A model generated the notes under the pieces. It was not told the origin of the DNA and searched no databases. It was given only the letters and a program-made list of their open reading frames with translations. Source: an uncultured Acidobacteriota bacterium (lineage in GTDB: Bacteria; Acidobacteriota; Vicinamibacteria; Vicinamibacterales; JAFNAJ01). From it: a DNA stretch of 64,000 nt. This document shows positions 4,941-40,741 of this stretch, one piece after another (the stretch's first letter is position 1; the number at the start of each line of letters is the position of its first letter). The stretch is from contig CAVONI010000001.1 in the NCBI GenBank assembly GCA_963697285.1, positions 320,812 through 384,811 of the forward strand, written 5' to 3'. The translations under genes and the position numbers were made by a program.

Positions 4941-5486
4941 ATGACCGAGCGCCGCCACGAAGCCGACTTCAGCCCGACAGATCGCCTGGCGAACAGCGTG
5001 AAGCAGCTGAGCGACCTCGAGGACGCCCTCGAACGCCAGGCCGGGCGTTCGGTTCGTATCGGGCATGCCGCGATACGGCTCATCGGCAGCCTCGGGTCGT
5101 CGTGTCGCAGCTGGGGCTGTGGGGTGCGTGGGTAGCCTGGAACCTTTGGGTGCCCGCCCACCTGAGGTTCGATCCGTTTCCGTTCGGCGTCCTGACGATG
5201 GCGGTGTCACTCGAGGGGGTTCTGCTGGCCGCGTTCATCCTGCTCGCGCAGAACCACATGCAGCCGTCAGTCGGAGCGCCGCGAGCGCCTCAACCTGCAC
5301 GTCGACATGCTGGCCGAGCAGCAGGTGACGATGCTGTTGCGCTACCTGCAGCGGGTGAGTGAGCACCTTGGCGTGAAACCGCACCCTGACGACGCGGCCC
5401 GCACGCACGCGTACGCGGCCGACACGGACGTCGAGCGCCTGGCGAGCGAGATTGACGAGACGATGAAGAGCCGATCGCAGCCGTGA
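4941..5486 (+). pseudogene. DUF1003-family membrane protein, reading frame broken twice
   Basis: MTERRHEADFSPTDRLANSV...AIRLIGSLG is in frame 0. The family core WGAWVAWNLWVPAHLRFDPFPFGVLTMAVSLEGVLLAAFILLAQN is in frame 2 (about 5095-5268). SERRERLNLHVDMLAEQQVTMLLRYLQRV...SRSQP is back in frame 0, ending at TGA 5484-5486. Confidence 0.6.
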
Positions 5487-29285: not shown

Positions 29286-29401
29286 GCCACCGCGCCCAGC
29301 CTGCGTGTGGCGCTCACGCGCAGCCGGTCAACCCGCGGCGTCGTGCCGGTGATCGAAATGGGCAACATGACCATGGTCTCTGACCATGGTAATATCCGGC
29401 G

Positions 29402-29641
29402 ATGGACACGATGGCGATCTCGACGTTCAAGGCCACCTGCCTGGCCGCGCTGGAGCGCGTCCGCCGGACGGGGCGGCCGCTGCGCGTCACGCGGTTCGGC
29501 AAGCCCGTGGCCGACATCGTCCCCCCAATGCCGGACCCCGCGCCGCGCGAGTGGCTGGGGACGCTGCGGGGGACACTCGACATCCAGGCCGACGTGACGG
29601 TGCCGTCAGGCGAACTCGTCACGTGGGACGCCCTCAAGTGA
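29402..29641 (+). CDS. type II antitoxin, Phd/YefM family
   Basis: 79 aa. MDTMAISTFKATCLAALERVRRTGRPLRVTRFGKPVADIVP matches the Phd/YefM N-terminal fold signature. Its stop overlaps the toxin start. Confidence 0.8.
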   Translation: MDTMAISTFKATCLAALERVRRTGRPLRVTRFGKPVADIVPPMPDPAPREWLGTLRGTLDIQADVTVPSGELVTWDALK

Positions 29642-30039
29642 AGCTGCTGCTCGACACCCACATCTGGCTCTGGAGCCACGTCGCGCCCGAGCGGCTCACG
29701 AAACGCGTCGCCGCTGCGCTCGCGCGCGAGGGCAATGAACTGTGGCTGTCACCGATCAGCGTCTGGGAGTTCCTGCTGCTCGCCGAGCGCGGACGTGTGC
29801 GGGTCAGAAACGGCATGGCCCCGCGCGACTGGGTGGAGTTGGCCCTCACTACGGCGCCCATGCACGATGCGCCATTGAGCCGCGAGGTGGCGATTCGCAG
29901 CCGGGCGCTGCGCGTCGACCACGACGATCCAGCCGATCGGTTCCTTGCGGCAACGGCAGACGTCTACGACCTGACGCTCGTGACGGCCGACGAACACCTG
30001 TTGCGAGGCAAGGGCTTCCGCACGCTCGCCAATCGCTGA
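29638..30039 (+). CDS. vapC: type II toxin VapC (PIN domain ribonuclease)
   Basis: GTG 29638 overlaps the antitoxin TGA (GTGA). The sequence VKLLLDTHIWLW...SPISVWEF...DPADRFLAATA...TLVTADEHL carries the PIN acidic residues. Confidence 0.85.
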   Translation: MKLLLDTHIWLWSHVAPERLTKRVAAALAREGNELWLSPISVWEFLLLAERGRVRVRNGMAPRDWVELALTTAPMHDAPLSREVAIRSRALRVDHDDPADRFLAATADVYDLTLVTADEHLLRGKGFRTLANR

Positions 30040-31076: not shown

Positions 31077-33925
<2,849 letters not shown>

Positions 33926-33928
33926 TCA

Positions 33929-34102
33929 GTGATCGCGCGGTGCTTCCTGACCGAGGCGCAACTCGTGTCGGAACTCGGCGCCGCCGGGTTCGCACCCGAC
34001 CCTGCCGTGCCCCTCAGGGAACTCAACCTGCCGCGTCCGGGCACGCTGCGTTCGGGAGGCGCGCCGGTCATCTTCGAGGGCGCTTTCCGCCTTGGCGACT
34101 GA
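33929..34102 (+). pseudogene. possible remnant of a methyltransferase C-terminus
   Basis: The frame right after the ATPase stop reads VIARCFLTEAQLVSELGAAGFAPDP...VIFEGAFRLGD. This resembles the F-T-x-x-EL-x-x-L-x-x-AGF tail of class I methyltransferases. No upstream domain is present. Confidence 0.2.
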
Positions 34103-34256
34103 CCTCACGAGAGCGCCGCGTCGCTGCGGGCTCGACGGCGCCATCGAGGCGACGGAACTCAGGCTGCAGAGCTGAGAAAGGTATAAACTCGTGAGGCTGA
34201 ACGGGTGTCCACCCGTTCTGCGCGACGACCGAGTTCCCGTAACGGAGGAACAACCA

Positions 34257-34769
34257 ATGTCTGACACGATGACCCTTCCACGCCGCCGGGCGGCCCTCGG
34301 CATGGCCCTCGGGCTGATCGCTGCGGCGACGCCGCTTCGCGCCCAGGGGGCGAAGCCGAGCCCCGAGGTGGAAGCGTTGAAGGCGCTGCTCGACGCGCAC
34401 GACAAGGCGTTCACGGCGCACGATATGAAGGGCGTGCTCGCGCTGTTTGCGCCCAATGCGACCATCCTGGGCACGGGCCCGGGCGAGATTTGGGGTGGCC
34501 ACGAGGAGATTGCGGTCGCCTACAGCCACTTCTTCGAGGACTTCGATCCCGGCAAGCAGACGGTCGAAGCGCTGTGGCGCGACGGTCACGTGCTCGGCGA
34601 CATGGCCTGGCTGATGACGTCCACCAAGGTCACCATGACGAAGGGGGCGACGGTCGTCGAGGTCGGGCTCAACCTTTCGGTCACGTTCGAGAAGATCGCG
34701 GGCAAGTGGCTCGTCCGCACCATGCACTTCTCGAACCTCACCGGCGGCGCGCCGCCAGAGAAGAAGTAG
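34257..34769 (+). CDS. SnoaL-like / NTF2-fold (DUF4440-like) protein with twin-arginine signal
   Basis: ATG 34257 follows GGAGGA. The Tat-like signal is MSDTMTLPRRRAALGMALGLIAAATPLRAQG. The NTF2-like body is ALLDAHDKAFTAHDMKGVLALFAPNA...KWLVRTMHFS. The gene ends 7 nt before the precursor gene. Confidence 0.7.
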   Translation: MSDTMTLPRRRAALGMALGLIAAATPLRAQGAKPSPEVEALKALLDAHDKAFTAHDMKGVLALFAPNATILGTGPGEIWGGHEEIAVAYSHFFEDFDPGKQTVEALWRDGHVLGDMAWLMTSTKVTMTKGATVVEVGLNLSVTFEKIAGKWLVRTMHFSNLTGGAPPEKK

Positions 34770-34776
34770 GACCGTC

Positions 34777-35151
34777 ATGGACGACACGCGCGACGACTTC
34801 CTTCCCGAGCCGGTCGACGAGGCCCGGCGCGAGTTCCTGCAAGGCGTCAAGTCCTGGTCGGCGGCCGTCGCCACGCTCGCGCTCGGCGGCTCGTTCGTGG
34901 CCGTGAGCACGCGGCCGGCTTCCGCGTGGGTCAACAGCAGCGCCACGTGGGTCAACACGCGAGGCGGCTGGATCAACAAGGCCGGGGCGTGGGTCAACAA
35001 GGCCGGCGCGTGGGTCAACGGCGCCGGCGGTTGGGTGAACAGGGCCGGCGGCGGCGGTTCCGCCGGCTGGGTGAACAAGGCCGGTGGCGGCAGCACTGCC
35101 GGCTGGGTGAACAAGCGTGGCGGCGGCGGCGCTGCCTGGGTGAACCGATAG
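34777..35151 (+). CDS. RiPP precursor candidate: Tat-leader peptide with nine W-[V/I]-N motifs in a Gly-rich repeat (GRRM/triceptide-like)
   Basis: 124 aa. The leader MDDTRDDFLPEPVDEARREFLQGVKSWSAAVATLALGGSFVAVSTRPASA has an RREFL twin-arginine motif and an A-S-A cleavage site. The core is WVNSSATWVNTRGGWINKAGAWVNKAGAWVNGAGGWVNRAGGGGSAGWVNKAGGGSTAGWVNKRGGGGAAWVNR. A radical SAM/SPASM gene lies 0.8 kb downstream. Confidence 0.75.
   Translation: MDDTRDDFLPEPVDEARREFLQGVKSWSAAVATLALGGSFVAVSTRPASAWVNSSATWVNTRGGWINKAGAWVNKAGAWVNGAGGWVNRAGGGGSAGWVNKAGGGSTAGWVNKRGGGGAAWVNR
34927..35148 (+). repeat. coding repeat: nine TGGGT(C/G)AAC / TGGATCAAC (W-V/I-N) units with 21-39 nt spacing
   Basis: Direct reading of the core region. 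Spacers lengthen and become Gly-rich towards the 3' end. Confidence 0.9.
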
Positions 35152-35186
35152 CTCCGGACGACGAGCCGTTCTCAACAGTCGTCAGC

Positions 35187-35947
35187 GTGCCAGTGGTGTG
35201 CGCGGCAGACCATGGACAGGGCGCGCTCATCCTGCGCGTCACGAATCCCGGGGATGTGCCTCGCGTTGCGGATGTCGATCCGCGGCGCGTCGTCTGGGTC
35301 GAGACCCCAGTTGGGCTTGCCGGCAGTGACTGGCCGCCCGGCATCGGGCTCGACCTGCGCGTGGTGGAGCCCGGGACAGAGGCCGCGTTGCTCTACGCGG
35401 TCGCGCACGTCGCGAACGAGCGCCCGCTTCGCGTGACGATTCCGGTCGAGCGCGGAGTGGCGAAGGCTGCCCGCGTGGCGATGGCCCTCCACCTGCCTGT
35501 GCGCCTGGCGGCGCAGCAACCAACGCCTGCGGCAGTCGCCGAACTCGCGTCCGTCCTCGAGGCGTACCTGCACGACTCACAGGCGACCGAGCCGGTCGAG
35601 TTCTTCCACTCGGCCCTCGCCCACGACGTCCACGGCGTGCCCACGACGCTGTGGATGGCCGTGGAGCGTGACCCGGCGTTCCACCAGAGGATGGCAGAGG
35701 ACGGGACTGCCGACCCGCGGGAACCCCCGCCAGACGAGGGCTTCGTTGCCGCGCACCTCTCCGGCGTTGACCGCGGCCGGGGCGGCGTGCGCGACGTGCC
35801 GTTTTCGCGACTTCTGTAGCGGGTTACTTCAAGTGGCCGGATCCCGCGTACGATTGCGGGCCGGTCATCGAACTGCTCGAGCAACTCCGGGCCGCCTCGG
35901 GTCAGCTCGCGCGCGACCTCGACGAAGCAGGGCCGGTGCAGACGTGA
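35187..35947 (+). CDS. rSAM-partner protein with C-terminal CxxCx5C Cys cluster (frame broken about twice)
   Basis: Frame 0 runs from GTG 35187/35193/35196 (VPVVCAADHGQGALILRVTNPG...EGFVAAHLSGVD). Frame 1 then reads AAGAACATCRFRDFCSG. Frame 2 then reads YFKWPDPAYDCGPVIELLEQLRAASGQLARDLDEAGPVQT. The frame-2 stop overlaps the rSAM GTG (GTGA at 35944-35947). Frame 2 has no start codon of its own. Confidence 0.5.
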
Positions 35948-37078
35948 CCGGGCCGCCGCTCAGCCTCATCCTGCTGCCGACGCTCGACTGCAACGTCGCC
36001 TGCGACTACTGCTTCGAGGAGAAGGCGCGCATCTCGCTGTCGCACGATGCAGCTGTCGCAGCTCACCGGCAGGATCCTCGATTACATGGCCGAGCGCGGG
36101 ACGACGCGGGCGGAGCTGTACTGGCAGGGCGGCGAGGCGCTGCTGATGGGCCACGCGTGGTTCGAGCGCGCCTTCGAGACGATGGGGCAGGCCGCGGCGC
36201 AGCGCGGCCTCGTGTTCCATCACTCGCTGCAGACCAACCTGATCGGCTACGGGCCGCACTGGAACGCGATCCTGCGCACGATGTTCGACGGCTCGGTCGG
36301 CACGTCGATGGACGTTCCGAATCGTCACCGCCGGCTGAAGAACGGGAGCACCGAACGCTACACCGAGGTGTGGCTCCGATCGGTGCGACAGGCCCGCGAG
36401 GCCGGGCTGAAGGTCGGCGTGATCGCGGTGCTCCACGCGGGCAGCCTCGACATCGGGGCGCGCGAGTTCCTGTCGTTCTTCACGCAGCAGGCCGGCATCG
36501 ACGACCTCCAGGTGAACCTGCCCTTCCCGGGCGGGCCGGGGCAGGGGGGCGACACGCTGGCGCCCGAGGCGCTGACCCGTTTCCTGATCGAACTCCTGGA
36601 CGCCTGGATGGAGACCGGCGCCGACCGTGGCGTCCGCCTCGGTCCGTTCGACGCGCTCCTCGACGCGTTCTCGGGCCGCCAGGCGCAACTGCCCTGCATC
36701 TGGCAGCCGAACTGTGCGAACGAGTTCGCGGCGATCGATGCGCGCGGCTCGGTGGCGCTCTGCGACTGCTGGGTCACCAGCTATCCCGAGCACCGCTTCG
36801 GCAATGTCTTCGGCACATCGAGCCTCTCCGAAATGCTGGGCGCGAGCCCCGCGCGCCAGGCATTCCTCGATCGGCCGGCGCACCTCGTGGATCACGACGA
36901 CTGCGGATCCTGCGCGCACCTGTCGCTGTGTCATGGCGGTTGTCCGGTTCGCACCTTCGCGGCCACCGGCACGATCCTCGCGAAGGACCCTTATTGCGAG
37001 GTCTACAAGGCGCTCTTCACGGAGTGCCGCGAGCGAGCGGCGGCGACCGTGCGGCGGCGCCATGCCGCCCTGTCATGA
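35944..37078 (+). CDS. radical SAM/SPASM domain peptide-modifying enzyme, interrupted by one frameshift near 36046
   Basis: The CX3CX2C motif LDCNVACDYCFEE (35989-36012) is in frame 1. The remainder (MQLSQLTGRILDYMAERG...YWQGGEALL...) is in frame 2 (ORF 36047..37078). It carries the SPASM motif CGSCAHLSLCHGGC plus upstream and downstream Cys residues. Confidence 0.85.
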
Positions 37079-37117
37079 GCTGATAGCCAGTCCCGATACG
37101 GGCGTTTCACGATACTG

Positions 37118-37861
37118 TTGCGCCAGACAGCAGGGAGGTTCGCCATCGGCCAGCGCTTCGAGACCACCCACTGGAGCGTCGTGCGGGCAGCGCAGACCGC
37201 TGACACGCAGCGGCGTCGCGACGCGCTCGGGGTGTTGTGCGATGCCTACTGGCCGCCCATCTACGCCTTCCTCAGGCGGCGGGGCCTGTCACCGGAGGAC
37301 GCGGCCGACCTCACGCAGGCCTTCTTCCTCCACCTCGTCGAATCGCAGCGGCTCGCGAACGTCGATCCGGCACTCGGCCGATTCCGCTCGTTCCTGCTCG
37401 CCTCGGTGAAGAACTTCGTCGCCAACGAGTGGGATCGCGAGCGCGCGCAGAAGCGCGGTGGACACATGGCCCGCGTGGCCTTCGACCCCGACGCGCTCGA
37501 ACGCCGCTACAAGGCACTGCACCGTGACGATCTCGACCCCGAGCGCCTGTTCGACCGGCATTGGGCGCACATCGTCCTGGAGCGCGCCGTCGATCGCCTC
37601 CGCGCCCAGCAGGAACGCGCCGGCAAGGAACGCGAGTTCGCGCTGCTGCGCACGTTCCTGACGTCGGACGCGGGTGGGGAGCGTGCCTACCGCGAGGTGG
37701 CCGCGGAACTCGGCGCGACCGAACCGGCGGTGCGGACCGCCGTGCACCGCTTGCGGTTGAAGTACGGGACGTGCCTGCGCGAGGAGATCGCCGAGACGGT
37801 CAGCGATGCCGTCGCTGCCGACGCGGAACTCCGTCACGTCCTGATCGTGGCCGCCGCGTGA
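37118..37861 (+). CDS. ECF-type RNA polymerase sigma factor
   Basis: The N-terminus is FETTHWSVVRAAQ. Region 2 reads LCDAYWPPIYAFLRRRGLSPEDAADLTQAFF. Region 4 reads YREVAAELGATEPAVRTAVHRLRLKY. The start codon is uncertain (TTG 37118; a GGAGG lies at 37134-37138). The gene is convergent with the Ser/Thr kinase gene. Confidence 0.8.
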   Translation: MRQTAGRFAIGQRFETTHWSVVRAAQTADTQRRRDALGVLCDAYWPPIYAFLRRRGLSPEDAADLTQAFFLHLVESQRLANVDPALGRFRSFLLASVKNFVANEWDRERAQKRGGHMARVAFDPDALERRYKALHRDDLDPERLFDRHWAHIVLERAVDRLRAQQERAGKEREFALLRTFLTSDAGGERAYREVAAELGATEPAVRTAVHRLRLKYGTCLREEIAETVSDAVAADAELRHVLIVAAA

Positions 37862-37954: not shown

Positions 37955-40741
37955 TCAGGCGGCGATGGCCCGCGTGAAGCGCTCGAGGAACTCGTGCGCC
38001 GACTGCGGCCGGCTGGCCACGTCGTCGGCGAGGGCGGCAGCGACAAAGACCGCGAGCGCCGCACTGAGCCGCCGTGGCGTGTGCACCACCGGATAGGTCC
38101 CTGTGGTGAGCTCCGCGTCGCGCTGGTGGTTGGCCAGACCGCGCGGTCGCGAGCCCGTCAGCATCTCGGCCGTCATCACCCCGAGCGCCCAGAGGTCCCA
38201 CAACGGCGATGTCTCCTCGCCGGCCAGTTGCTCGGGCGACATGTACGCCAGCGAGCCGACGATCACATCGGCGTGTGTGCGCGGCGTGGTCACCGACGAT
38301 GACCCCGCAAGGACCTTGGCGATGCCGAAGTCGAGCAGTTTCGTCACCTCGTGATCGGTCGAACGCGCGAGGAAGACATTCTCGGGCTTCAGGTCGCGGT
38401 GCACGAGGCGTCGGCTGTGGGCCTCCTCCAGGACGTGGCAGATGTCACTGACCACGCGCGAGGCACGCGGCACGTCGAGCGCGCCGTCGCGGGAAATGGC
38501 GTCGCGCAACGTGCGGCCTTCAAGGCATTCCATCAGCAGGAACGCGCGCCCGCTGCGCGTGACGCCGACGTCGTAGACCGTCACGACGTTGGGATGCGTG
38601 AAGCTCGCCGCCACCTGCGCCTCGCGCCTGAATCGCTCGGCGGCGTCGCTGCTGCCCACGAGGTGATCCCCGATCACCTTCACCGCCACCTGGCGGACGA
38701 GGGCCTCGTCGCGTGCGCGGTAGACGCGCCCCATGCCGCCGGCGCCGATGCGGGCTTCGAACCGATACCGCCCCGCGAGTACCGGCGGCAGATCGTTGAC
38801 CATCAGCAGCACGCCGTCGTGCGGGCACCGCGCGAGGGTGGTATCGAAACAGGCGCCGCAGTCAGGACACTCGGCCAGCGACGCGTCACCTTCGTCCGGC
38901 ATCGACGTCGGCGTCGCCGACACCGCGCGATCGAGCAGGAGGCCAAGGCTCGCGGCGATCGCCTCGAGCAGCGCGATGTCGTCGCGCGTGTAGGGCTCCT
39001 CTGACCGCTTCGGCCCGAGCGCCAGCAGCACCTCGCGCCCGGCCTCGACCGTCACGGGGACGACCAGTTCCACCTCGGCGTCGAACACGGCGTGTGACTC
39101 GTCGGCGGTCAGGTGCTGCGTAATCCACGTGTCGTGATCGGGCGATAGCTGGAGGGCCGATCCCGTGGCACGCGCAAGTCCGACCAGCGTCCAGCCCGGC
39201 GCCGGGGCGAACTGCCGGGGAAACGATGGCGTCGCCGCGAGGATGGCAAAGGGACCGGTGTCACCACGGTGCGCGAGCGCACCGACGAACGCCGGTTGCA
39301 GGGCGGCAGCCACTTCATCGACCACGTGCGCGGCGGCGCCGGCAGGATCAGTGGCCGTGCGCAGCCGGGCGGCCACGCTGTGCAGGACCTGCTCGGCCCG
39401 GTGACGTTCGCGGAAGAAGCGGCGATCGAGCTCGTCGAGCCATCGGCGCCGGTTGACGAGCGTCACCCCGAGCGCTCCCGCGAGCAATGCGTAGAGCCAT
39501 CCCCGTGCCTGCAGCAGTGGGCCGATCGGCTGGTCGTGGCGCAGCAGGATGTCGGCCATCAGCGCGACCGCCAGCACGGGCACGAGGCCGATCAGGAGCC
39601 GTCGCGCCAGCGCGTAGCGCACGCCCTGGCGCAGGATCGACCCGACATCGAACACGCGTTGCCGCAGCACCACGTACGCCACAGAAAGCGGGAAGGGCAG
39701 CAACATCAACACGCCCGCCAGCGTCAGCGGCGAGTGGAACAGGCCGCTCGTCACCTGCGATGAGCTGCCGAGCCAGAATTCCGTTTCGACCAGGGCGGCC
39801 GCCAACGCGCCAATGGTTGCGCCTGCCAGGAGCAGGCGCAGGCGGCGCACCTCGGCAGGCTCGTGCAGTCGGCGGTACTGGGCGACCAGCATCACCAATC
39901 CGCCGGCCGAATAGGCAGTCGTGAGCGCGACCATGTGCGGCATCCAGTCGCGGCCCGTGAGGGTGCGCGCCTCGAGCTGCACGGCGATGTACCCGAACGC
40001 GACGTGCCAGGCCAGGATGATCGCCCCGGGGACGCACAGGAGGGGCACGGCCCACGGGCGGTCGCGCAGGAGCGGCTGCGGAAACCGGGCACTGAACAGG
40101 AAGAAGAGCATCGGGCCTGCCATGCTGCACAGGAAGGGCAGCCACATGGCCCACTCGAGCGGTGCGGGAAGGCTCCGCCAGTAGCGGGCGAAGCCGAAGG
40201 GCAGGACGATGGTGAAGACCGCGAGGCTGCCGAGCAACAGCGCCGCGAGTCCCGCAAGCCAGTTGCCGGGGCGCCTGACCGCGACCATCACGCCGAGGGC
40301 GAGACACAGCGCCTGCACGAGCCGGGCGAACCAGAGGGCGAGGCTCTTGCTCTCGAGCGACTCCCAGCGACGTTGCACCGCCGACTCGATGCGCGTCGAG
40401 AACACGGCGCCGTCGCGCGTCACGTCGATTGCGATGGGACCGCCCGTGAGGTTCGCGTCCACCGCCATCCAGTCGAGGCGCGTCATCACGCGACGCTCCG
40501 CGTACGACCGCACGCGGTCGCCCGGCTTGATGCCCGCCTGCGCGGCGGGAGAGCCGGCCGTCACGCCGGCAACCAGCACGCCCGCCTCGTCGAAGGCGAT
40601 GTGCAGTCCGGTGGGGGTGCGCTGGAAGAGGTCGGCGTAGAGGAGGACGCCGAAGTAGAGCAGGAACGCGCCGATGACGGCGTAGACCCATGCAGCTGGA
40701 CGTGGCCGCCTGGTGCCGCGGGGGCGTGGTCGCTCAGGCAT
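37955..40741 (-). CDS. membrane Ser/Thr protein kinase with PDZ, polytopic TM, GAF-like and zinc-ribbon-like regions
   Basis: 928 aa. It has a PDZ-like AGSPAAQAGIKPGDRV, about 8 hydrophobic segments, a GAF-like region and CPDCGACFDTTLARCPHDG. The C-terminal kinase has GAGGMGRVYRA, VAVKVI, HRDLKPENVF, DFGIAK and YMSPEQ. Confidence 0.9.
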   Translation of the reverse strand: MPERPRPRGTRRPRPAAWVYAVIGAFLLYFGVLLYADLFQRTPTGLHIAFDEAGVLVAGVTAGSPAAQAGIKPGDRVRSYAERRVMTRLDWMAVDANLTGGPIAIDVTRDGAVFSTRIESAVQRRWESLESKSLALWFARLVQALCLALGVMVAVRRPGNWLAGLAALLLGSLAVFTIVLPFGFARYWRSLPAPLEWAMWLPFLCSMAGPMLFFLFSARFPQPLLRDRPWAVPLLCVPGAIILAWHVAFGYIAVQLEARTLTGRDWMPHMVALTTAYSAGGLVMLVAQYRRLHEPAEVRRLRLLLAGATIGALAAALVETEFWLGSSSQVTSGLFHSPLTLAGVLMLLPFPLSVAYVVLRQRVFDVGSILRQGVRYALARRLLIGLVPVLAVALMADILLRHDQPIGPLLQARGWLYALLAGALGVTLVNRRRWLDELDRRFFRERHRAEQVLHSVAARLRTATDPAGAAAHVVDEVAAALQPAFVGALAHRGDTGPFAILAATPSFPRQFAPAPGWTLVGLARATGSALQLSPDHDTWITQHLTADESHAVFDAEVELVVPVTVEAGREVLLALGPKRSEEPYTRDDIALLEAIAASLGLLLDRAVSATPTSMPDEGDASLAECPDCGACFDTTLARCPHDGVLLMVNDLPPVLAGRYRFEARIGAGGMGRVYRARDEALVRQVAVKVIGDHLVGSSDAAERFRREAQVAASFTHPNVVTVYDVGVTRSGRAFLLMECLEGRTLRDAISRDGALDVPRASRVVSDICHVLEEAHSRRLVHRDLKPENVFLARSTDHEVTKLLDFGIAKVLAGSSSVTTPRTHADVIVGSLAYMSPEQLAGEETSPLWDLWALGVMTAEMLTGSRPRGLANHQRDAELTTGTYPVVHTPRRLSAALAVFVAAALADDVASRPQSAHEFLERFTRAIAA

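Follow-up and report, generated by a model that had tools for sequence, protein, structure and literature searches.

An undescribed partner protein with a putative Aux II-type cysteine tail in a radical SAM peptide cassette, and the three-frame reading of its gene in an Acidobacteriota contig

Among described peptide systems, those closest to the locus analysed here are the GrrA/GrrM systems, which are the same as OscA/OscB (TIGR04260 and TIGR04261), and the systems of DynA, DarE and DarW, the dynobactin and darobactin maturases, which form Trp cross-links. The locus lies in a 64,000-nucleotide stretch of DNA from an uncultured Acidobacteriota bacterium of the Vicinamibacterales (GenBank assembly GCA_963697285.1, contig CAVONI010000001.1, positions 320,812 to 384,811 of the forward strand; G+C ∼69%), the whole of which is called the window below, and its subject is a gene for a partner protein (35187..35947, + strand) that stands between the gene of a repeat-bearing precursor peptide and that of a maturase with radical S-adenosylmethionine (rSAM) and SPASM domains. 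To our knowledge, described GrrA/GrrM systems contain no such partner protein, no leader resembling a twin-arginine translocation (Tat) signal and no SnoaL-like gene, and the literature searched names none for them. Triceptide maturases such as OscB act on Gly-rich precursors, according to work cited in PMC11851443. The auxiliary clusters of SPASM domains are best followed here in anSMEcpe, in which auxiliary cluster II (Aux II) is bound by C317, C320, C326 and C348, and C330, the X3C cysteine, binds auxiliary cluster I (Aux I); the Twitch domain keeps the Aux I half and is without CX2CX5CX3C (PMC5715301).

As deposited, the partner gene changes frame twice. We consider it likely that it is nonetheless an ordinary single-frame gene carrying two spurious extra bases, as the rSAM gene carries a third, that it encodes a member of an unnamed family in which a novel N-terminal domain is joined to an Aux II-type Cys module, and that it sits in a conserved cassette. 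The gene represents an undescribed accessory family, its cassette is a variant of the rSAM cyclophane type that is likewise undescribed, and the frame changes themselves are an ordinary artefact.

One gene in three frames and the origin of the breaks

Three-frame translation of 35100-37100 reproduced all three readings that had been proposed for the partner from the letters alone (the sequence-only reading). The gene can be read only by passing through frames 0, 1 and 2: frame 0 runs from GTG 35187 through ...EGFVAAHLSGVD and on to TAG 35817-19, frame 1 contains ...AAGAACATCRFRDFCSG, and frame 2 reads YFKWPDPAYDCGPVIELL...PVQT*, also given as YFKWPDPAYDCGPVIELLEQLRAASGQLARDLDEAGPVQT. The overlap that had been described between the frame-2 stop and the rSAM start is seen in the sequence, with TGA 35945-35947 and GTG 35944 sharing the tetranucleotide GTGA (35944-35947), and frame 2 is indeed without a start, as no ATG, GTG or TTG occurs from the stop at 35768-70 to YFKWP. 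Candidate starts of the whole gene are GTG 35187, 35193 and 35196, and the choice among them is uncertain; with GTG 35187 as its start, the repaired product has 252 aa and not 253 aa as proposed. The frame-0 product is annotated as a 208-aa protein (P0001) in NCBI/ENA, on a 527-kb contig.

A search with the repaired protein found intact homologues. It matched 105 homologous proteins, of which the intact ones align over 99-100% of its length with E values of 1e-104 to 1e-109, and close homologues other than P0001 are 250-290 aa long, share up to 72% identity with the repaired partner and carry GAECAxCRFRxxCAGYFKWPDPAYxC. Hence the family neither ends at the frame-0 stop (35819) nor lacks the Cys motif, and with intact homologues in which the parts are fused and the Cys tail is present, the claim that the pieces are one gene stands. 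Moreover, tblastn of the intact homologue of locus L001 gave window high-scoring segment pairs in frames 3, 1 and 2. Because of these pairs in three frames and the intact homologues over 99-100%, the three-frame protein signal is far more than chance.

Two contigs locate the breaks. L086, a Logan contig of 2,021 nt that comes from an independent assembly of run ERR12036777 and was found via the exact precursor protein, is 99.75% identical to window 33819-35841 with five differences in total, and there are zero differences across the first 1,542 nt (33819-35360). Two of the five are gaps that fall exactly at the break sites, at one G of the GG at 35763-64 and at A 35818, and mismatches at 35361, 35802 and 35821 (G35821 is C in L086) make up the rest. 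The ORF (open reading frame) of L086 is unbroken: it reads ...AAHLSALTAAGAACATCRFRDFCAGYFKWP, runs ...HLSALTAAGAACATCRFRDFCAGYFKWP up to the contig end, and its uninterrupted reading to that end is also given as ...FVAAHLSALTAAGAACATCRFRDFCAGYFKWP. The second contig, L085 (ENA ERZ25039459 contig_37846), is 89-91% identical to the window and its closest long relative, and it has one base fewer at each of 35765, 35818 and 36048.

At the first break (35763..35764, + strand) one G of GG is extra, and the true TCC GCG TTG reads S-A-L within HLSALTAAG. At the second (35818..35818, + strand) an extra A creates the frame-0 TAG at 35817-19; the true TGT GCC GGT TAC reads C-A-G-Y, so that the protein becomes FCAGYFKWP, and the family consensus is C-A-G-Y-F-K-W-P. 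The sequence-only reading had set this second switch at a GGG run, which is slightly off, since the comparison with L086 assigns it to the TAG-forming A. A third break, absent from that reading and found by three-frame translation, lies inside the rSAM gene (36048..36048, + strand), where removal of an extra T gives CAC GAG CAG, H-E-Q, and L001 has S-R-E-Q-L at the corresponding position. Deleting one base at 35765 and one at 35818 gives a single 252-codon partner ORF, with L086 putting the first site at G 35763/64, and deleting T 36048 gives an uninterrupted 377-codon rSAM ORF.

The three shifts all go the same way and fall within 290 nt of an operon, and this, together with a tail-less frame-0 product that would be a plausible truncated isoform, invites the idea of programmed frame changes, in which +1 ribosomal frameshifting or transcriptional slippage would regulate production of the Cys tail. 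However, the break contexts are TCC[G]GCG, TGT[A]GCG and CGA[T]GCA, and no slippery or homopolymeric sequence was found at the three sites, 36048 included; single-frame intact homologues are the rule across phyla, the near-identical contig L086 is without the extra bases, and similar breaks occur in unrelated genes. Programmed frameshifting is rejected on the first three of these grounds, and we give it practically no weight.

Breaks of this kind are a general problem of the deposited sequence. The window holds 12 breaks in total: the partner gene has two, the rSAM gene one, a gene for a P-type IIA (Ca-ATPase-like) ATPase seven and a DUF1003 gene two. The ATPase gene (∼31080-33925) is split by its seven frame changes, and residues 32-925 of the stitched product align in one stretch with the Listeria Ca-ATPase LMCA1 (residues 19-870, E 3e-164); the DUF1003 gene (∼4980-5486) is broken at ∼5095 and ∼5268, and, once stitched, its product covers positions 2-97 of the 103 in PF06210. 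The breaks are clustered at 31.95-36.05 kb and 5.1-5.3 kb, and the remaining long window genes inspected are intact.

If these frameshifts were real, the source strain would have recent pseudogenes for the partner, the rSAM, the ATPase and the DUF1003 protein. The breaks are present in the deposited sequence, the frame-0 product has its own annotation as P0001, and the L085 copies of the same genes are broken too, one of them near the same ATPase position. Against this, both sites in the partner gene are intact in L086, and neither a nonsense codon nor a large deletion accompanies the 12 indels; comparison with L085 likewise showed no in-frame stops in the repaired frames of the ATPase, rSAM and partner genes. 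With the frames repaired, the ratio of nonsynonymous to synonymous substitution (dN/dS) against L085 comes to 0.165 in the ATPase gene, 0.18 in the rSAM gene and 0.40 in the partner gene (0.17-0.40, as in intact neighbours), and intact control genes give 0.15-0.20. A relative-rate count with L001 as outgroup found a ∼2:1 excess of changes on the window branch, alike in broken and unbroken genes. The breaks of L085 lie elsewhere except at ∼32617 and are scattered from one end of the contig to the other, as suits a noisy assembly. L085 is indeed one: compared with the window it has single-base indels all along its length, in large numbers, and its copy of a downstream Ser/Thr kinase, for example, is 701 aa long versus 928 aa. 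Moreover, natural bacterial gene decay is biased toward deletions, whereas the window breaks are clustered and 10 of the 12 are extra bases. Real pseudogenes are thus disfavoured by L086, by dN/dS, by the absence of stop codons and by the clustering of the breaks, and we hold this explanation to be quite improbable.

The comparisons indicate that the extra bases in the partner gene are almost certainly assembly consensus errors, and a biological meaning of the frame changes is unsupported, an independent, 99.75%-identical contig being without both of them. Three observations weigh against consensus errors. L086 might in principle come from a near-identical strain and not from the same genome, and one amino acid differs (V/M) at 35361; the extra bases, which make up 10 of the 12 breaks by our own count, lie mostly outside homopolymers; and the ATPase break near 32617 is common to the window and L085, which by itself would suggest a real shared mutation. 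Because the low dN/dS indicates strong purifying selection, we read this last break, short of proof, as a recurrent technical error and not as an ancestral mutation. What looks like recoding or a pseudogene is then, for purposes of annotation, an assembly artefact, and with at least 12 breaks in the deposited window, truncated protein calls such as the 208-aa P0001 are not trustworthy.

The partner family and its cysteine tail

The partner family is widespread, unnamed and undescribed. A family profile run against 1.84 billion representatives matched at least 423 clusters (50% identity) at E≤1e-3 and 297 at E≤1e-10, mostly of 255-290 aa, and partner genome loci occur in Verrucomicrobiota, Acidobacteriota (Pyrinomonadaceae), Desulfobacterota, Competibacteraceae, Accumulibacter, Armatimonadota and Planctomycetales. 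Pfam and NCBIfam gave no model at threshold for the window partner and 81 relatives, and a sequence search of the PDB with the family profile and a profile of the tail returned nothing relevant. Literature searches, which included a compendium of rSAM enzymes for peptides that are made by the ribosome and modified after translation (RiPPs), found no description of the family or of the cassette, no paper with GrrA/GrrM terms or containing the precursor repeat strings, and no paper that pairs a twin-arginine leader with rSAM cyclophanes.

The tail carries the Cys motif C201-x2-C204-x5-C210-x-G-Y-F-K-W-P-D-P-x-Y-x-C223 (35788..35857, + strand; Cys codons 35788-90, 35797-99, 35815-17 and 35855-57). 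Across 81 family members C201, C210 and C223 are invariant, C204 is present in at least 90%, and no other Cys is conserved. The sequence-only reading had called this tail SPASM-like, and profile alignment agrees: when hhalign was run with the tail and the cognate rSAM, the match had a probability of 58% and P 9.7e-5, the four Cys pairing with C320, C323, C329 and C351 and GYFKWP standing opposite HGGCPV of the rSAM. From the place of these residues in the seven-Cys motif of the rSAM and the anSMEcpe numbering (PMC5715301), the four Cys of the partner are predicted to correspond to a complete Aux II ligand set with the Aux I half absent. Set against the SPASM pattern CX2CX5CX3C, the partner has CX2CX5C and the distal Cys, both conserved, and is without the X3C cysteine; the CX9-15GX4C of the Aux I half is missing as well. 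Formal family membership does not follow: PF13186 and TIGR04085 at cutoff gave no Pfam match, and TIGR04085 reached one of 81 members, at E 0.14.

The repaired partner gave an AlphaFold2 model (predicted local distance difference test score, pLDDT, 94.8; predicted template modelling score 0.90) with alternating beta and alpha elements, and its N-terminal ∼185 aa are a novel alpha/beta domain. These alternating elements, the weak TIM-barrel hits reported below, the existence of pseudo-SAM families (TIGR04347 and PsgB are among the NCBIfam hits) and an hhalign alignment of the whole partner family that is colinear with the C-terminal half of the cognate rSAM (E 0.0024) would suit an origin as a degenerate rSAM/SPASM paralogue, a pseudo-rSAM that acts as scaffold only and whose Cys are structural or bind zinc. 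The whole-protein alignment has a probability of only 12%, however, and its signal is entirely in the tail; the N-terminal 185 aa alone showed no similarity to the rSAM (probability 0.1%), so a pseudo-rSAM origin of this domain is unsupported. Moreover, the partner has no CX3CX2C motif and no Pfam match to the radical SAM domain (PF04055), no rSAM structure is among the best 50 Foldseek PDB hits of the whole model, and four Cys that make up a complete Aux II set argue for a cluster rather than a relic. We regard the pseudo-rSAM explanation as improbable. What had been proposed as a SPASM-only or pseudo-rSAM accessory therefore keeps its Aux II-like tail and loses both the pseudo-rSAM label and membership of the SPASM family, and the partner is most likely an accessory subunit with a single predicted Fe-S cluster.

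The partner domain also occurs in fused form. In P0177, P0180 and P0240 (588-621 aa) it is followed by an HxsC/HxsC4-like rSAM domain, and in P0160 (669 aa) it follows a HemN-like rSAM. P0183 consists of the partner, an unassigned region and a methyltransferase-like domain, and P0202 of the partner and the unassigned region of P0183, without an NCBIfam match. The Cys motif is kept in every fused form.

The cassette and the proposed role of the partner

The order SnoaL_3/DUF4440 protein, precursor, partner and rSAM/SPASM maturase recurs in loci L001, L003, L004 and L085 and in most of 80 genome loci. In the window the first gene (34257..34769, + strand) encodes a protein that matches Pfam SnoaL_3 (1.6e-12) and DUF4440 (1.1e-9) and has a signal-like N-terminus, MSDTMTLPRRRAALGMALGLIAAATPLRAQG...; a SnoaL-like gene precedes the precursor in the same four loci and in most genome loci. 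The precursor (34777..35151, + strand; 124 aa) begins with a Tat-like leader, ARREFLQGVKSWSAAVATLALGG...PASA, and goes on to nine Gly-rich W-[VI]-N repeats, ending in WVNR. Its leader scores 15.2 bits against the Tat signal model TIGR01409 (cutoff 16.7), with the hydrophobic stretch and PASA present, and the whole precursor scores 23.4 bits against the GrrA/OscA model (cutoff 31), in the repeat region only. Calling as precursor any ORF with at least three WxN motifs, we found that 79 of 85 loci have an ORF with 3-18 W-x-N motifs ending just upstream of the partner. In 72 of these 79, RRxF[LIVM] is present, and after it there usually come GKWS, a stretch of hydrophobic residues and a site resembling AxA; such Tat-like leaders suggest, from their sequence, an export route so far undescribed for rSAM-modified peptides.

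The maturase (35944..37078, + strand; 377 aa when repaired) starts at GTG and carries the full seven-Cys SPASM motif. Because its CX3CX2C lies already at residues 16-23, it is without an N-terminal RiPP recognition element (RRE). Its SPASM domain exceeds the TIGR04085 cutoff (46 versus 27), and its best NCBIfam matches are all below cutoff: anSME 134 bits, TIGR04083 127, DynA 126, DarW 106 and GrrM/OscB 70 (69.6 bits against a TIGR04261 cutoff of 310), with DarE among them too. An rSAM gene is immediately downstream of the partner in ∼65 of 85 loci, the stop and start codons often overlapping, and in the window and several relatives the partner stop overlaps or abuts the rSAM start.

We propose that the partner would bind one [4Fe-4S] cluster and form a complex with the maturase. 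Since the maturase is without an RRE, it is probably the partner that holds the conserved leader (RRxFL...KWS), extends an electron path from the SPASM clusters, or does both. The rSAM would meanwhile join Trp and Asn within every W-x-N unit into cyclophanes of the triceptide type, by analogy with OscB, DynA and DarE, and the modified peptide would subsequently be exported via the Tat-like signal. In its widest form the proposal is a new class of rSAM accessory, a detachable module with the Aux II half of SPASM only, joined to a novel leader-binding domain, that works in trans or fused with unrelated rSAMs (SPASM-type, HxsC-like and HemN-like) and couples poly-W-x-N cyclophane formation to Tat-type export; this we put forward as tentative.

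Several results count against the proposal. Foldseek of the whole partner model against the PDB, which had been suggested as a check, returned only weak transaldolase- or TIM-barrel-like hits (E about 0.03, template modelling score 0.27-0.30), and a model of the tail alone (pLDDT 83.6) had no Foldseek hit. Sub-threshold NCBIfam matches of the tail to HxsC (22 of 81 members), DynA (10 of 81), TIGR04053, AhbC, QhpD and XyeB agree with the Aux II reading, but each is insignificant by itself, at E>0.01. Leader binding, electron relay and Tat export are steps that we infer. Finally, ten Competibacteraceae loci and the Acidobacteriota locus L052 have the partner without an rSAM gene within 8 kb, with a precursor upstream in most, and from these loci a strict role as rSAM subunit is not universal. 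The ten (L006, L012, L024, L030, L038, L041, L057, L058, L060 and L064) and L052 have no SnoaL-like gene within 8 kb either, and in Competibacteraceae the precursors are not Gly-rich but rich in Pro and Arg, their repeats being WYN/WYD.

The loci without a nearby rSAM, which usually keep the precursor, also fit a partner that acts mainly with the precursor, as a Tat proofreading chaperone or as a peptide-modifying enzyme, with the link to the rSAM secondary. The W-x-N ORF just upstream in 79 of 85 loci, the conserved leader motif RRxFL..KWS and the fusion of the partner domain to non-rSAM sequence in P0183 and P0202 point the same way. On the other side, ∼65 of the 85 loci have the rSAM directly downstream, often with overlapping stop and start, and there are four independent fusions to rSAM domains. 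No catalytic motif was recognised in the partner, no similarity to the TorD, DmsD, NapD or PqqD families was found in Pfam/NCBIfam, and the RRE/PqqD winged helix (PF05402) had no profile match in 81 family members. A role chiefly with the precursor is a possibility that we think doubtful, and we continue to favour an accessory subunit of the maturase.

The cassette is followed in the window by a gene for an extracytoplasmic function (ECF)-type sigma factor (37118-37861, +) and one for a 928-aa membrane Ser/Thr kinase (37955-40741, -). Homologous DNA follows the cassette in L085, and the genes do not follow it in more distant loci; the two genes are therefore probably outside the system. Elsewhere in the window, ∼29307-30039 holds a small antitoxin-like ORF and then a PIN-domain (VapC-like) ORF.

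Comparison with known systems

The partner tail resembles the Aux II site of SPASM domains (anSMEcpe; PF13186, TIGR04085) in its CX2CX5C, its glycine, its distal Cys and its C-terminal helix, matches that part of the adjacent rSAM residue by residue, and resembles the site also in its association with a peptide-modifying rSAM. Unlike SPASM, the partner is free-standing, has neither the Aux I half nor the X3C cysteine (GYFKWP in place of HGGCP) and could hold at most one cluster, and unlike the Twitch domains of BtrN, MoaA and SkfB it retains the opposite, Aux II, half. RRE/PqqD partners and TorD/DmsD/NapD chaperones, small separate proteins, hold a substrate leader or signal until cytoplasmic maturation is complete, and they offer a functional analogy only, being without sequence or fold similarity to the partner. 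A free-standing module of the Aux II half and its fusions to rSAM domains bear on the function of SPASM auxiliary clusters and on substrate recognition by maturases without an RRE.

With GrrA/GrrM the window cassette shares Gly-rich repeats containing an aromatic residue-x-Asn and an adjoining RRE-less rSAM/SPASM protein, whereas its precursor and rSAM both score below the cutoffs of those families (23.4/31 and 69.6/310 bits). DynA, DarE, DarW and anSME are RRE-less rSAM/SPASM proteins as well and the best-scoring relatives of the window rSAM (106-134 bits), which nevertheless lies far below their family cutoffs, and the DynA, DarE and DarW systems differ in having short single-core precursors and no such partner. 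As a whole, the cassette is related to the systems that mature triceptides, darobactin and dynobactin, and is itself undescribed.

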